This document shows positions 12,490 through 62,025 of a stretch of 64,000 nucleotides of DNA, piece after piece. The position numbers and the translations under genes were made by a program. Positions within the stretch are counted from its first letter, which is position 1; each line of letters starts with the position of its first letter. Location of the stretch: positions 36,598-100,597 of the forward strand of contig NZ_JANINP010000002.1 of assembly GCF_024508665.1 (NCBI RefSeq), in the 5' to 3' direction. The stretch is from Sphingomonas sp. GTDB lineage: Bacteria > Pseudomonadota > Alphaproteobacteria > Sphingomonadales > Sphingomonadaceae. The notes beneath the pieces are model-generated. The model saw nothing but the letters and a program-made list of their open reading frames with translations. It was not told the origin of the DNA and made no database searches.

Positions 12490-14997
12490 TCAAAGATCCG
12501 GCAGCACCTGCCGCGCAATCCCCCATCCCGCCAGCTCCTTCGACGACGCGCGCTGCAGCAACTCGTCCTGATCCCCGACATGCCACTTGGCCGGCGTCTC
12601 GAGGTCGCCAAGTTCTGCCCAGGTCACCGGGACAGCAACCGGCGCCTTGGCGCGCGCGCGCGCGGTATAGGGCATCACCGCGGTCGCGCCGCGCTGGTTG
12701 CGCAACCAGTCGAGGAAGATCTTCCCCTTGCGCTTGGCCTTGGACATGGTGGCGGTGAAACGGTCGGGCTCGGCCTGGGCGAGCGCCACGCAGAAGCGGT
12801 CGGCGAAATCCTTGACCGCCGGCCATTCGGCCTCAGGCGTCAACGGCACGACGACATGGACGCCCTTGCCGCCCGACACCATCGCGAAGCTGACGAGGCC
12901 GATCTCGGCGAGATGGCCCTTGATCTCGACCGCGGCTTTCTTCACCTCGGCAAAACCAAGTCCCTCATCGGGGTCCAGGTCGAACACGAGGCGATCGGGC
13001 TTTTCGACGTCGGCGACCGACGATCCCCAGCCGTGGAACTCGATCGTCCCCATCTGGACGCATTGCAGCAGCCCGTCGGCATCATCGACGTAGAGATAGG
13101 GTTCGACCGACCCGTCCTTCTCCTCGATGTTCACATGCTTGACGTGCTCGCCGAACGAGCCGGCGTCATGCTTCTGAAAGAAGCAATGCTTCCCGCGTCC
13201 CTGGGGGCAGCGCACCAGGCTGATCGGGCGGTTGGCGATCCATTGCAGCGCTACGGGCGCCATCGCCTCGTAGAATGCGGCTAGGTCACCCTTGGTCACT
13301 GTCGAATCGGGAAAGATCAACCGGTCCGGGTGGGTGATCTTCACGCTCGACGCTTTCGGTTTGAGGGCAGGCTTGGCTTTTTCCACGACCACCTCTTCGG
13401 CCTCCTTGTCGCCGCGCAGCCCCAGGAAGCTTGGGTGCCGCAGGACCTTGTCGGGCGTCGTCTCGGTATAGGCAATCTCGGCGACCAGCTTTGGGGTTAC
13501 CCAATGCACGCGGCGGGTGGCGGCGCGCGGTGCCTCCACTGTCGGCGTCTTGCGGGCGAGCCTGTCCAATTTGGCACGTAGGTCGTTCATCGTCTCGACC
13601 GAAAAGCCGGTGCCGACCTTGCCGGCATAGCGCAGTTCGCCATCTTCATGGACGCCGAGGAGCAATGCGCGAAATCCGCGCGACTTGTCGCTCTCGGTCC
13701 AGCCGACGATGACGAATTCCTGGCGGAGCAGGCATTTGACCTTGAGCCAGGCCTGGGTGCGGCGGCCGGAATAAGGCGCGTCGGCCCGCTTGCAGACGAT
13801 TCCTTCATAACCTTCGCGACACATCGTCTCGAACAATTTCTCGCCTTCGCCGACGATATGCTCGGCATATTGCAGCCGCGCATCAGCGCCCTCGAGCAGC
13901 GGGCGCAGGCGCTCTTTGCGCTGGACCTGGGGCAGTTTGGCAAGGTCTTCGCCGTCGAGTTCGAGCAGGTCGAACGCGAACAAGGTCATGTCGCCGTCGT
14001 TGGAAATGGCGTCCTTCAATGTCGAGAAATCGGGGTGCCCGTCCTTGAACGCGACGATCTCCCCGTCGATCAGCGCCGATCCCACCGGCAGCTTGGCCGC
14101 CGCGTCGGCAATGGCGTGGAACTTGTCGGTCCAGTCGAGGCCATTGCGCGTATAGACCTTGGCCTTGCCGCCACCGATCGCGATCAGCGCGCGATAGCCG
14201 TCATATTTGACTTCGTGAATCCAGCCGGTGCCGGTCGGGACGGAGTCGACCAGGGTGCAGAGCTGGGGATCGCGGAATTTGGGCATCTTAGCGTCGCCCC
14301 GGCGGAGGCCGGGGCCGCTGCGTTTCACGGGGGAATCCGAGCCACTCGGCGGCCCCGGCCTTCGCCGGGGCGACGTATTGGAGGAACGCAGCTTCTTCCA
14401 GCTTGCCAGTTCCTTCGCTTTCCTCCCCTTGGCGATCTCCGCCATCGAACGGCCGGTCTTCACGCTGGTGACGGCATTCTCGACCAGATCGTCAGAACCG
14501 CCGGCATAATCGTCCTCCAGCTTCCTCAGCAGCCAGTTGGTATTCCGTTCCTTTCCCTGCGGCTTAAGCCGGATCAGCAGCCATTCGCCCTTCATCCTCT
14601 CCCCATGGAGGATGAAATGCAGATGCCCCTTCTCCAGATCTTTTGCGGACTTGCCGGGAATCGGCTCCCACCAGCCGTCATCCCATAACATCACGGTGCC
14701 GCCGCCATATTCGCCTTCGGGAATCGTGCCCTCGAAATCGGCATAGCTGATCGGGTGATCCTCGGTCTGCACCGCCAACCGCTTGTCGTCGGGATTGAGG
14801 CTGGGGCCCCGCGTCACGGCCCAGCTCTTCATCACGCCGTCAACTTCGAGCCGCAGATCCCAGTGCAGCCGCGTCGCGTCGTGCTTCTGGACCATGAACC
14901 GATGCCCGGCGGTGCCGCTACGCTCCCCCTTGGGTTCCGCGGTCTTCGAGAAGTCGCGCTTGGCGTTATATTTGGCGAGGGGGTCCCGGTCAGCCAT
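12490..14997 (-). CDS. ligD: NHEJ DNA ligase D (phosphoesterase-ligase-polymerase)
   Basis: PE domain FMVQKHDATRLHWDLRLE; ligase EVKYDGYR, EGIVCKR, WLKVKC; polymerase RCPQG..FFQKH, FDLDPD, SGGKGVH, RNQRGAT. Confidence 0.97.
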   Translation of the reverse strand: MADRDPLAKYNAKRDFSKTAEPKGERSGTAGHRFMVQKHDATRLHWDLRLEVDGVMKSWAVTRGPSLNPDDKRLAVQTEDHPISYADFEGTIPEGEYGGGTVMLWDDGWWEPIPGKSAKDLEKGHLHFILHGERMKGEWLLIRLKPQGKERNTNWLLRKLEDDYAGGSDDLVENAVTSVKTGRSMAEIAKGRKAKELASWKKLRSSNTSPRRRPGPPSGSDSPVKRSGPGLRRGDAKMPKFRDPQLCTLVDSVPTGTGWIHEVKYDGYRALIAIGGGKAKVYTRNGLDWTDKFHAIADAAAKLPVGSALIDGEIVAFKDGHPDFSTLKDAISNDGDMTLFAFDLLELDGEDLAKLPQVQRKERLRPLLEGADARLQYAEHIVGEGEKLFETMCREGYEGIVCKRADAPYSGRRTQAWLKVKCLLRQEFVIVGWTESDKSRGFRALLLGVHEDGELRYAGKVGTGFSVETMNDLRAKLDRLARKTPTVEAPRAATRRVHWVTPKLVAEIAYTETTPDKVLRHPSFLGLRGDKEAEEVVVEKAKPALKPKASSVKITHPDRLIFPDSTVTKGDLAAFYEAMAPVALQWIANRPISLVRCPQGRGKHCFFQKHDAGSFGEHVKHVNIEEKDGSVEPYLYVDDADGLLQCVQMGTIEFHGWGSSVADVEKPDRLVFDLDPDEGLGFAEVKKAAVEIKGHLAEIGLVSFAMVSGGKGVHVVVPLTPEAEWPAVKDFADRFCVALAQAEPDRFTATMSKAKRKGKIFLDWLRNQRGATAVMPYTARARAKAPVAVPVTWAELGDLETPAKWHVGDQDELLQRASSKELAGWGIARQVLPDL
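14292..14375. repeat. CGTC-tagged REP doublet inside the ligD reading frame (84 bp)
   Basis: CGTCGCCCCGGCGGAGGCCGGGGCCGC at 14292-14318 and GCGGCCCCGGCCTTCGCCGGGGCGACG at 14349-14375; nearly identical to the intergenic copy at 15008. Confidence 0.88.
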
Positions 14998-15007
14998 GGC
15001 AATATCC

Positions 15008-15090
15008 CGTCGCCCCGGCGCAGGCCGGGGCCGCTGGCGGCACCTTTCCGGCTAGAACCGCCGGCGATCCCGGCCTCCGCCGGGATGACG
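15008..15090. repeat. CGTC-tagged REP doublet between ku and ligD
   Basis: CGTCGCCCCGGCGCAGGCCGGGGCCGC at 15008-15034 and GCGATCCCGGCCTCCGCCGGGATGACG at 15064-15090. Confidence 0.9.
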
Positions 15091-15098
15091 AGTGAGGC

Positions 15099-15998
15099 TC
15101 AAGCACGCTTCTTCGCCGGAGCGGCCCGCGCCGGAGCCTTTTTGCGCGCGGTCTTCTTGGTGGTCGTGACGCTCTCCTTCTGCGCCGGCTTGGCGCTCGG
15201 CTTCTCGATCGATTTCTTGAGCGCGGCCATCAGGTCGATGACGTTGGACCCGGAGCGGCCGGTCCCTTCGTCGTCCTTGTCCTCGATGATCTTGCGGCGC
15301 GATTTCTGCTTGGCCTTGCGCGCGATCAGGTCCTTCAGCGCATCGACATAATGGTCGTGGAACTTGGCGGGATCGAACTTGGACGATTTCTTGTCGATCA
15401 ACGCGGTCGCGAGATCGAGCAGATCCTCGTCGGGCTCGTCATCGGGAATGTCGCGGAAATAACCCTGCGCGCGATTGACCTCGCCGGCATAGCGCAGCGT
15501 TTCCAACACCATGCCGCGGCCGCAAGGTTTCAGGCTGACGACATATTCGCGCCCGCGCATCGCGAGCTGGCCGATCCCGACCTTTTTCGACCGGCGCAGC
15601 GCCTCGCGCAGGACGATGAACGCCTCCTCGGCAAGATCGTCGGCGGGGACGACGAAATAGGGCCGCTCGTAATAGAGGACGTCGATCTCATCCATGTCGA
15701 CGAATTGGGTGAGCTCGAGCGTCTTTTTCGATTCGAGCTTCACCGCGTCGATCTCGTCCTGGTCGAGCAGGACATATTCGCCCTTCTCATATTCGAAGCC
15801 TTTGACGATCTCGTCGGGATCCACCTCGCCGATGCCGGGCACGGTCTTCTCATACTTGATCCGCTTGCCCGAAGGTTCGTGGATCTGGTGAAACGCCACC
15901 TGCGCGCCGGATTTGGTCGCGGTGTAGATCTCGACCGGGATCGAGACGAGCGCCAGCCTGATCTGTCCCTGCCAATAGGCCCGTGCGGCCATCGTCAC
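15099..15998 (-). CDS. ku: NHEJ Ku protein
   Basis: MAARAYWQGQIRLALVSIPV, KGFEYEKGEYV, YERPYF, VGIGQLAMRGRE, NVIDLMAALKKS, basic tail. Start may be 15992. Confidence 0.97.
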   Translation of the reverse strand: MTMAARAYWQGQIRLALVSIPVEIYTATKSGAQVAFHQIHEPSGKRIKYEKTVPGIGEVDPDEIVKGFEYEKGEYVLLDQDEIDAVKLESKKTLELTQFVDMDEIDVLYYERPYFVVPADDLAEEAFIVLREALRRSKKVGIGQLAMRGREYVVSLKPCGRGMVLETLRYAGEVNRAQGYFRDIPDDEPDEDLLDLATALIDKKSSKFDPAKFHDHYVDALKDLIARKAKQKSRRKIIEDKDDEGTGRSGSNVIDLMAALKKSIEKPSAKPAQKESVTTTKKTARKKAPARAAPAKKRA

Positions 15999-18437: not shown

Positions 18438-18443
18438 CCTAAA

Positions 18444-18590
18444 TCCTTCCCGGCACAGGGAGGGGGACCGCGCGCGATAGCGCGTGGTGGAGGGGACCTG
18501 CCGTTCGCTAGCCCCTGGTCTGTTGCTCGTTGTCGCGGGCCCCTCCACCATTCGCTACGCGAATGGTCCCCCTCCCCATTCCGGGGAGGA
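18444..18590. repeat. gene-less copy of the hairpin inverted-repeat element (long-arm subtype, like element B)
   Basis: Arms at 18444-18495 and 18540-18590: outer hairpin, GGGACC, inner hairpin, TGGTGGAGGGG tail; 6 nt after the phzF stop. Confidence 0.8.
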
Positions 18591-18664
18591 ATTCATGTCA
18601 TCCCAGCTTTCCGTAGCGTCCGCTTCACCGCCGTCAAAACTGGCTATTTTCCACTGTTTCCGCT

Positions 18665-33924: not shown

Positions 33925-33928
33925 ATTC

Positions 33929-34002
33929 CGTCATTCCAGCGAAAGCTGGAATCTCAGGCAGTTGAGATACTGCACGAGATCCCAGCTTTCGCTGGGATGA
34001 CG
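33929..34002. repeat. CGTC-tagged REP doublet
   Basis: CGTCATTCCAGCGAAAGCTGGAATCTC at 33929-33955 and GAGATCCCAGCTTTCGCTGGGATGACG at 33976-34002. Confidence 0.9.
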
Positions 34003-34023
34003 GCTATTTTTCGAAGCCGTCGG

Positions 34024-35103: not shown

Positions 35104-35961
35104 TCAAGGTGTGGCGATGACGCATCTGTCGCGCCCGGCAAGATCGCGGCGAACCGCGACCTTCAGACCTTGTGCGGTCAGCAAGGCCGAAACCGCTCCG
35201 GCCTGGGTCGCACCGATCTCGATCGCGGCCATGCCGCCCGGCGCGATCAGGCGCGGGAGCTGGGCGGCGATAATGCGATAGTCGTCCAGCCCGTCTACAC
35301 CGGCGAACAGTGCCGCGCCGGGCTCGTGCTCACGCACCTCGGCCGGGAGCGATTCGCCGATGGCGATATAGGGCGGGTTGCAGAGGATCAGGTCGAAATC
35401 TCCCGCTACCCCCTCGGCCCAGTTGCCGATGCGGAACGCGGCGCGATCGGCCAGATTGAGTAACTCGGCATTGCGCCGAGCATAATCGAGCGCCTCGGGC
35501 GAGGCGTCGATCCCCAGGCCATGCGCCTCGGACCATTGCGCAAGCGCGGCGAGAAGCAAGGTCCCCGGCCCGGTTCCCAGGTCCAATATCCTCAACGGCG
35601 CTTCGACATCCGGCCAGTGTTCCACCGCGACTTCGATCAAGGTTTCGCTATCGGGGCGCGGGATGAGGACGCCGGGACCAACCGCGAGGCTGATCGTCCA
35701 GAAATCACGCGTGCCGATGATGTAGGCGACGGGTTCGTGCGCGAGGCGGCGGTCGATCAGTGACGCGAAGGTGTTGGGCGCGGAGTCGTCCAGGTGCCGC
35801 AACAGCAATTGCTCGCGCGTCGTGCCCAGCGCGTGGGCCATCAGGAGTTCGGCATCGAGGCGGGGAGTGTCGGAGACGCCGGCGAGACGCGAGGCGGCAT
35901 CCGCAAGTGCCGCCCTAACTCCCCTCCCGCTTGCGGGAGGGGTCGGGGGAGGGCGTGTCAC
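35104..35961 (-). CDS. prmC: release factor glutamine methyltransferase PrmC/HemK
   Basis: RRLAHEPVAYIIG..DFW, VLIPRPDSETL, LDLGTGPG, CNPPYI, EP..ALFAG.DGL, DLAGRDR. The only visible N-terminal start (GTG 35961) lies inside the repeat. Confidence 0.95.
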   Translation of the reverse strand: MTRPPPTPPASGRGVRAALADAASRLAGVSDTPRLDAELLMAHALGTTREQLLLRHLDDSAPNTFASLIDRRLAHEPVAYIIGTRDFWTISLAVGPGVLIPRPDSETLIEVAVEHWPDVEAPLRILDLGTGPGTLLLAALAQWSEAHGLGIDASPEALDYARRNAELLNLADRAAFRIGNWAEGVAGDFDLILCNPPYIAIGESLPAEVREHEPGAALFAGVDGLDDYRIIAAQLPRLIAPGGMAAIEIGATQAGAVSALLTAQGLKVAVRRDLAGRDRCVIATP

Positions 35962-36016
35962 AACATGCGGGGAGGGAACATGCCCTCCCCTAGCCCCTCC
36001 CGCGAGCGGGAGGGGA
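35919..36016. repeat. gene-less hairpin inverted-repeat element (short-arm subtype) between prfA and prmC
   Basis: Arms at 35919-35958 (CTCCCCTCCCGCTTGCGGGAGGGGTCGGGGGAGGGCGTGT) and 35978-36016. Confidence 0.88.
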
Positions 36017-45507: not shown

Positions 45508-45600
45508 CTCCCCTCCCGCTTGCGGGAGGGGTTGGGGGAGGGCATGTCGAAACTGGGAAGAACACGCCCTCCCCCAACCCCTCCCATAAATGGGAGGGGA
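45508..45600. repeat. gene-less hairpin inverted-repeat element (short-arm subtype)
   Basis: Arms at 45508-45547 (38/40 identical to 35919-35958) and 45562-45600. Confidence 0.9.
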
Positions 45601-61883: not shown

Positions 61884-62025
61884 GCCCCTCCCTTTCAAGG
61901 GAGGGGTTGGGGGTGGGTGAGCGGCGGCGGGGGCTCGATGACCCCGTCGTCGCTGGGGTCAGCCGCCGCACGCTCTCTGCGCTCGCGACCAACCCCTTGA
62001 TCCCCTCCCTTGAAAGGGAGGGGAG
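61884..62025. repeat. gene-less hairpin inverted-repeat element between tolQ and tolR
   Basis: Arms at 61884-61918 (GCCCCTCCC-TTTCAA-GGGAGGGG-TTGGGGGTGGG) and 61988-62025. Confidence 0.85.

Follow-up and report, generated by a model that had tools for sequence, protein, structure and literature searches.

Previous work defined the CGTC-tagged repetitive extragenic palindromes (REPs), which are mainly alphaproteobacterial, with Sphingomonas wittichii, Sphingopyxis alaskensis and Erythrobacter litoralis among the carriers (Di Nocera, De Gregorio and Rocco, 2013, BMC Genomics 14:522; PMC3733652). In that work dimers were prevalent and had no dedicated transposase; units of the CGTC-1 family had an 8-bp stem and a 4-nt loop, with A-T complementary residues "almost invariably" at the first and second stem positions (PMC3733652). 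Some copies lay in frame within genes: Additional file 3 of that paper includes dnaE2 from S. wittichii, E. litoralis and R. palustris and, from E. litoralis, glyS and truB, among other genes, and the listed GlyS, DnaE2 and TruB hosts span Erythrobacter, S. wittichii, Rhodopseudomonas, Stenotrophomonas and Rickettsia. Inserts within a functional class were at different sites, Xanthomonas recB excepted, and the excess of repair genes among the hosts was argued to be unlikely to be fortuitous. LigD is absent from the published host table, and a literature search found no publication on in-frame CGTC REPs later than PMC3733652. Here we describe a CGTC REP dimer that lies in frame in ligD, the gene of the LigD protein of non-homologous end joining (NHEJ) in bacteria, in a 64,000-nt stretch of a Sphingomonas sp. 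genome (GCF_024508665.1, contig NZ_JANINP010000002.1, positions 36,598 to 100,597), hereafter the window. The dimer, of CGTC-1 type, probably landed in a permissive linker of LigD and has been carried there as a passenger.

An earlier note on the window, made from its letters alone, had placed an in-frame 84-bp CGTC doublet between the phosphoesterase and ligase domains of LigD, and we confirmed its coordinates, frame and peptide. By direct reading of the sequence the element is an inverted pair of CGTC-tagged REP units whose 84 nt are exactly window positions 14292-14375. Each arm is 27 nt long, CGTCGCCCCGGCG[G/A]AGGCCGGGGCCGC, and the two arms are inverted around a 30-nt loop, the whole reading CGTCGCCCCGGCGGAGGCCGGGGCCGC - 30 nt - GCGGCCCCGGCCTTCGCCGGGGCGACG in the window. 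Each arm can fold on its own, as an 8-bp stem, GCCCCGGC/GCCGGGGC, closed by a 4-nt loop, so that the unit is GCCCCGGC-GNAG-GCCGGGGC. The first nucleotide of the element is the second base of codon 208; with a length of 84 nt the reading frame of ligD is kept, and residues T208-D235 are repeat-encoded. The gene and the parts of the element are as follows.

12490-14997, minus strand: ligD, phosphoesterase - ligase - primase/polymerase (Pfam), 835 aa, a single uninterrupted open reading frame (ORF).
14292-14375, minus strand: in-frame CGTC-tagged REP dimer, 84 nt, in ligD, encoding T208-D235 (TSPRRRPGPPSGSDSPVKRSGPGLRRGD); orthologs L032, L002 and L004 carry it at this site too.
14349-14375, minus strand: mRNA-5' arm, a REP unit that is CGTCGCCCCGGCGAAGGCCGGGGCCGC in mRNA sense and encodes SPRRRPGP; an exact member of a 23-mer family.
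14319-14348, minus strand: 30-nt inter-arm loop, unconstrained, with 13-21 of 30 nt identical to the orthologs; AACGCAGCG adjoins the 3' arm.
14292-14318, minus strand: mRNA-3' arm, the inverted REP unit, encoding GPGLRRGD.

A 24-mer pattern of the unit gave three matches in the window, namely both ligD arms and a site at 15008, as against none in 100 shuffles, and repeat detection on the window listed the arm pair as an inverted repeat (I4). In mRNA sense, a 111-nt region has a predicted fold of -75.7 kcal/mol, compared with a mean of -48.3 for shuffled sequences (z = -7.5; 0 of 200 shuffles as good). The copy number (given below), the fold and the frame together uphold the proposal that a member of a REP family has been exonised in LigD, adding an Arg/Pro/Gly-rich stretch and a strong predicted hairpin.

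So stable a predicted hairpin raises the question of whether it ends transcription or translation, so that the phosphoesterase and the ligase-polymerase are made separately, or whether the gene is decaying. In some bacteria the LigD domains are separate proteins (PMC8656161). However, the 835-aa frame is uninterrupted and its three domains exceed the Pfam cut-offs by a wide margin: LigD_N (phosphoesterase) at residues 37-143 (E = 1.5e-44), the ligase domains at 256-531 (DNA_ligase_A_M, E = 1.8e-28; DNA_ligase_A_C, E = 3.9e-29) and LigD_Prim-Pol at 568-816 (E = 2.1e-87). The predicted polypeptide thus holds a phosphoesterase, an ATP-dependent ligase (NTase and OB domains) and a primase-polymerase, with ku adjoining, as expected of LigD. 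No terminator-like site or U-tract was found in 13900-15300, and ligD has no internal start signal, the next Met being M238, right after the element. Nor was a promoter-like signal found at the element, and comparison with Rfam gave nothing above the gathering score, only look-alikes of microRNA precursors (35 bits against a 168-bit cut-off). Relatives whose LigD is 78-92% identical keep the arrangement, moreover, and purifying selection acts on both halves. Given the intact frame, the lack of a terminator-like site and the conservation of both halves, disruption of ligD is very improbable.

The window's genome (G000; 4.64 Mb, 64.8% G+C) contains many relatives of the ligD element. The 27-mer has 32 exact copies there and 55 at no more than two mismatches. 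A scan for GTC[AG] followed by a perfect 7-bp hairpin gave 410 matches, which fall into few stem subtypes, GCCCCGGC being the commonest with 48, and an nhmmer profile found 331 units, grouped in 199 elements; the inverted dimers among these elements number 126 (123 simple and three double dimers). Units of G000 that share GTC[AG] and then a hairpin number between 277 and 331. The distribution among genomes is patchy: the 23-mer, at no more than one mismatch, has 53 copies in G000, 75 in G009, 34 in G002 and eight in G021, with zero to four in eight more distant congeners, and a sister subtype with a CCCCGCG stem is similarly patchy. A reversed control of the 23-mer pattern gave no matches in the compared genomes.

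The ligD element resembles CGTC-1 in most respects. The tag CGTC starts both arms on their own strand; the stem is G+C-rich and of 8 bp, the loop of 4 nt and the tail short; and the units are dispersed in hundreds of copies, mostly as inverted dimers, with no dedicated flanking transposase. In both cases dimers that lie in frame contribute 20-30 aa to proteins of replication, repair and RNA handling, and the same peptides, SSRRRPGS, VAPAQAGA and DPGLRRDD, occur in Sphingopyxis alaskensis (PMC3733652). It differs in that LigD is not a listed host, in its tail, CGC rather than the commonest CCA, and in the start of its stem, where the ligD subtype has G-C and C-G in place of the A-T residues; sister subtypes in G000 have AT or AC there. 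The A-T feature is not strictly defining, since the VAPAQAGA peptides of S. alaskensis imply the same GC subtype. A further difference is that here one site is re-used across the genus and by unrelated families, while the published inserts were at different sites.

Other described systems are less close. The earlier note had cited the palindromic elements (RPEs) of Rickettsia as precedent. Palindromes within proteins are indeed known, but a closer precedent is that of the CGTC REPs in alphaproteobacterial repair genes, sphingomonads included, which was published in 2013 (PMC3733652). RPE-1 and its relatives (Ogata et al. 2000, cited in PMC3733652) are also in-frame palindromes tolerated at surface or linker positions, and R. 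conorii RPEs also end in CGTC (PMC3733652). By their descriptions, however, they are set apart: RPE-1 is about 100-150 bp, A+T-rich and found only in Rickettsia, while the ligD element, from a free-living sphingomonad, is G+C-rich and made of two short units. The GTAG REPs of REPIN/RAYT systems (Bertels and Rainey 2011; Nunvar 2010; Ton-Hoang 2012, all cited in PMC3733652) share with it the inverted hairpin pair, the single long fold, the high copy number and the conserved arms with a free loop; the tag of the ligD element is, however, CGTC and not GTAG. An association of the CGTC units with a RAYT was considered and rejected. The only Y1_Tnp (IS200/RAYT-like) gene of G000 is a 226-aa open frame at C6:563274-563954 (plus strand), directly downstream of a sigma-factor-like ORF. 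No CGTC unit occurs within 3 kb of the gene, so that the defining REP-RAYT association is absent. Finally, bacterial miniature inverted-repeat transposable elements (Correia/NEMIS, Nezha; PMC3184786, PMC10969869) are likewise small, non-autonomous palindromes that can join an ORF without breaking it, but the ligD element is much shorter, lacks the terminal inverted repeats of an insertion sequence and has no visible target-site duplication at its junctions.

To follow the insert through the genus, the phosphoesterase-ligase linker was extracted from 95 LigD orthologs (89 distinct) drawn from 21 same-genus genomes and 80 named Sphingomonas records. The same element was found at the same site in L032, L002 and L004, whose LigD proteins are respectively 92%, 85% and 78% identical to the window's. 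These copies have the right junction GACG-CN-AAR-ATG-CC in common with the window copy. Compared with the window copy, their arms are identical at 24-26 of 27 nt and their loops at 13-21 of 30, and their coding flanks are 72-89% identical. In L004 one compensated change preserves the arm-arm pairing (GGGGCC/GGCCCC to GGGACC/GGTCCC). Because the nearest orthologs carry the same element at the same place, the insertion is old within the window's LigD clade; its arms are held at the DNA level, close to the consensus of the family, and its loop is free and has become randomised. A clean gap of about 28 aa had been expected in close relatives and was not seen; the insert is shared. Those relatives that share the peptide (L032, L002 and L004) also keep the palindromic DNA, so that the peptide does not occur there apart from the repeat. 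The nearest element-free states are those of L038, L041 and L033, the last with 8 aa left over from another family.

The same subtype also occurs in a distant LigD clade (L039 and L046, 72-74% aa identity), with arms matching at 24-27 of 27 nt and a length of 84 nt. The element is 84 nt in L001, L032, L002, L039 and L046 and 87 nt in L004, that is, 84 nt in five of six copies of the subtype. Judging from these sequences, its presence in L039 and L046 may reflect one old origin, allele transfer or selection on length. The loop motif AACGCAGCG was considered as proof of a single origin and rejected: it is found in many intergenic copies and, being family-wide, cannot decide between one origin and several. 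It had also been suggested that the repeat could be a site of domain shuffling. We reject this for want of evidence: the identities of the phosphoesterase, ligase and polymerase domains to relatives are congruent over 94 orthologs, and in a 30-nt sliding comparison no transferred patch was found around the element in L039 or L046.

Across the genus, the linker is a recurrently occupied site. The 89 distinct linkers were sorted into three states by their signatures in DNA and peptide.

No element, 40 of 89: linkers of 24-40 aa, rich in Lys, Arg, Ala and Pro and very variable.
CGTC-type element, 23 of 89: several stem subtypes.
Unrelated palindrome, AAATCCTCCCCGGCACGGGGAGGGGGACC...GGTCCCCCTCCCCGTGCCGGGGAGGATTT, 26 of 89.

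The AAATCCTCCCCGGCACGGGGAGGGGGACC family is read in LigD in two frames, KSSPARGGGP.. and KILPGTGRGT.., and therefore represents separate insertions. On a FastTree gene tree of LigD made with the linker left out, three-state parsimony required at least 31 state changes, and at least 21 after nodes with support below 95 were collapsed, as against a mean of 40 when labels were shuffled; with this tree and under parsimony these counts are lower bounds, although recombination could inflate them. Close relatives differ too. Sisters L002 and L003 carry different CGTC subtypes; a concerted replacement of the whole family was rejected as the cause, because G021, the genome of L003, holds both subtypes. 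In L033:1501-3936, from a metagenome-assembled genome labelled Stakelama sp. whose LigD is 87-89% identical to the window's, a 23-nt solo hairpin, TTTCCTCCCCGTCCCGGGGAGGATTT, with the peptide SSPSRGGF, lies exactly at the dimer site of L001 and L032. It matches the end of the AAATCCTCCCCGGCACGGGGAGGGGGACC family and, on the face of its sequence, looks like a collapsed full element. In the S. faeni / S. aerolata group (L056-L091), very close LigD relatives alternate between two linker families, one CGTC-type (SSQRKLGS..TPASAGAT, 83 nt) and one AATCCTCCCC-type (SSPARGGGPAKLVEG..GGPPPRAGEEF, 155 nt), which suggests either that recombination has exchanged two linker alleles or that replacement has occurred repeatedly. 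We infer that the linker is a hot spot in which several CGTC subtypes and an unrelated palindrome family have settled again and again; hot spot is meant descriptively and not against a null rate.

These observations fit best with a dimer of CGTC-tagged REP units, of CGTC-1 architecture, that would have inserted between the phosphoesterase and ligase domains, in a linker that is flexible and basic, and is now part of the ORF. The element is probably a selfish or neutral passenger. The linker would be disordered and was already rich in Lys, Arg and Pro, so that 28 more residues rich in Arg, Pro and Gly would be harmless. Survival of the element at this site would be due to three circumstances: a length that is a multiple of three, a G+C-rich sequence free of stops in the frame used, and a disordered basic linker. 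The arms would be held by whatever maintains all REP copies rather than by selection on LigD, candidate forces being structure-specific selection, a mobilising or binding protein, or conversion between copies. Among 119 measured dimers of G000, 32% have a length divisible by three, and a mean of 3.3 of the six frames are stop-free, so that about one in six random coding insertions would keep an ORF open. The limiting step of exonisation is the protein's tolerance, and the LigD linker is plausibly tolerant of inserts: element-free orthologous linkers differ greatly in length and sequence, and a LigD review describes the inter-domain loops as flexible (PMC8656161). An AlphaFold model has coil at residues 162-235 with a predicted local distance difference test score (pLDDT) below 50, but the model, shallow at 25 sequences and with a mean pLDDT of 62.9, is poor elsewhere too and says no more than that the linker is not confidently folded.

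Several points weigh against the passenger reading. In so shallow a structure model, low scores for the linker are weak evidence of disorder. Both translation of the peptide and its neutrality are inferred. Among the closest relatives no truly empty site with a clean 28-aa gap was found. A length of 84 nt is rare among the dimers of the family in G000 (two of 26), yet it is nearly uniform in the LigD copies of the subtype, and all 23 CGTC-type LigD copies are read in the same 5'-arm frame (S-P/S-x-R-K/R..). Going by these sequences, the shared frame and length could reflect either selection on the peptide or one old origin. The arms are better conserved than the coding flanks, synonymous positions included, which could mean that the hairpin is selected at the ligD locus. 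Last, although a genome has only about eight in-frame palindromes, a small set of host proteins and sites is met repeatedly in different taxa and with different repeat families, a recurrence poorly predicted by purely random insertion followed by tolerance.

Some of these points favor an adaptive role, in which the hairpin of the ligD mRNA (through inter-domain translation pausing, mRNA stability or processing) or the Arg/Pro-rich peptide (through DNA contact, or a linker length that coordinates the three domains) is selected. The conservation of the arms at 24-27 of 27 nt, silent positions included, would be so explained, as would the compensated change in L004, the basic frame of every CGTC-type copy and the uniform lengths of 84-87 nt, and the non-fortuitous excess of repair genes argued by Di Nocera et al. 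(PMC3733652) points the same way. On the other hand, 40 of the 89 orthologs are element-free and 26 carry an unrelated element with a different peptide, L033 lost the element within about 10% protein divergence, and arm conservation is typical of all copies of the family, intergenic ones included. Taking into account also the lack of a terminator or promoter-like signal and of an Rfam family, we regard an adaptive role as unlikely.

It had been proposed that the proteome be scanned for other in-frame REP peptides. Candidates in G000 were screened by ORF length and codon-position G+C and then checked with Pfam. CGTC dimers were found in GlyS, RNase R and a DnaE2-like polymerase, and inserts of the other two palindrome families in further proteins with Pfam domains on both sides. 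Single-unit "in-frame" matches (SDFRWDDE in Ddl, and several transporters) were judged to be chance resemblance or native sequence and were not counted.

C3:342414-342499, minus strand: CGTC dimer of the ligD subtype in the tRNA_synt_2f domain of GlyS (glycyl-tRNA synthetase beta), VAPAKAGAAGLSVEGGSSNVTAPASAGAT, VAPAKAGAAG..TAPASAGAT.
C3:341742-341764, minus strand: single CGTC unit, EEYVAPASAGATLSY, an exact 23-mer match, likewise in the GlyS frame and close to the C-terminal domain.
C3:308344-308422, minus strand: CGTC dimer inside the RNB domain of RNase R, SSPQRKLGSREESPAGEARDPSFRWDD, SSPQRKLGS..RDPSFRWDD.
C1:122609-122696, minus strand: CGTC dimer of the ATGCCGG subtype in a DnaE2-like error-prone polymerase, within its N-terminal PHP region, CHAGLVPASTEPQSPGRVVEWTPAQGRGDD, CHAGLVPAS..TPAQGRGDD.
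C6:365988-366124, plus strand: insert of the other two families in TruB, SSPARGGGP..GPPPRAGEE.
C6:95149-95276, minus strand: insert of the other two families in the barrel/B12 interdomain linker of methylmalonyl-CoA mutase.
C2:447213-447343, minus strand: insert of the other two families in the lipoyl/E3-binding linker of an E2 acyltransferase.
C6:128627-128766, minus strand: insert of the other two families in RecF.

In 30 relatives the GlyS site, which follows WLVEEGIV, is 46-49 aa when empty and 74-100 aa when filled, the fillers being CGTC elements in two frames, a second family (AATCCTCCCC) and a third (KPLPFRGGVGGG..). The E. litoralis GlyS has a listed CGTC-1 dimer at about the same place (PMC3733652). 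The RNase R site is empty in G009, G007 and G005, holds the third palindrome family in G014 and G003, and has a larger insert in G018.

The ku/ligD junction is a second site near the ligD element. The neighboring features are as follows.

15008-15090, no strand assigned: second CGTC REP dimer, 83 nt, intergenic, between the ku stop and ligD start codons.
15099-15998, minus strand: ku, directly upstream of ligD (NHEJ operon; Pfam Ku, E = 1.8e-49).

The copy at 15008 had been called nearly identical to the ligD element. This holds for the left arm (26 of 27 nt), but the right arm is of another subtype (..CCCGGCCTCCGCCGGGATGACG) and the two loops bear no relation to each other; over their full length the elements are 81% identical. 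Among 13 relatives (loci within L001-L046) the ku stop abuts the ligD start in six, a junction of zero width, and in the other seven it is occupied by a palindromic dimer; these dimers are of no fewer than five kinds (other CGTC subtypes or another family). The intergenic site turns over faster than the in-frame ligD site.

The recurrence at these sites bears on a further explanation, that a resident palindrome or a local DNA feature attracts later palindromes, which insert there or replace it. A few in-frame sites (the LigD linker, GlyS, RNase R, DnaE2 and TruB) would then be long-lived while their contents are exchanged, and such targeting would be compatible with the passenger reading. In LigD, GlyS and RNase R, the same site holds different families in different species; GlyS, DnaE2 and TruB are already published hosts in other genera; the L033 remnant of another family lies exactly at the dimer site; the zero-width ku/ligD junction has been filled by diverse elements; and close relatives of the S. 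faeni clade alternate between two families. Against this, neither a transposase nor a target motif was found, the left flanks have no sequence in common, and the sites were chosen because they are occupied in G000 and were compared without a control set of ordinary intergenic REP sites. The interleaving on the tree may also be, in part, allele exchange by homologous recombination or gene-tree error. We therefore put forward only tentatively, as a possibility on the doubtful side, that the in-frame sites in LigD, GlyS, RNase R, DnaE2, TruB and RecF are long-lived landing pads in which unrelated families replace one another. If true, landing pads would imply either an insertion machinery targeted to hairpins or selection for a hairpin or flexible peptide in repair and RNA-handling proteins.

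With the ligD element, LigD, and hence bacterial NHEJ, joins the published list of repair proteins with CGTC REPs. CGTC REPs, their dimers and in-frame copies in repair and RNA genes were already described (PMC3733652). These results extend the earlier observations in four respects: the site shared by orthologs, the genus-wide occupancy of the linker by unrelated families, the 21 or more state changes, and the parallels in GlyS and RNase R. Within one genus, a few in-frame positions hold at least three unrelated palindrome families that turn over between close relatives. The result is a natural allele series (no insert, family A, family B, remnants) in LigD, which is non-essential, and in GlyS, which is essential. 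This series could be used to probe the neutrality of inserts, the movement of CGTC REPs that have no known transposase, and the over-representation of repair and RNA-handling proteins among hosts. For annotation, REP-encoded stretches yield spurious similarity between unrelated proteins. In tblastn searches, LigD residues 206-246 showed such similarity (46-65% identity, 30-40 aa long) to numerous loci of G000, G002 and G009 that are unrelated, the matches being other REP dimers in translation.

The window has further palindromic elements. Two other CGTC dimers, of other subtypes, are at 2176-2264 and 33928-34003. One AATCCTTCCC..GGGGAGGAATT palindromic element is at 18441-18593, and three copies of the third palindrome family (TCCCCTCCCGCTTGCGGGAGGGG..) are at 35920-36016, 45509-45600 and 61885-62023.

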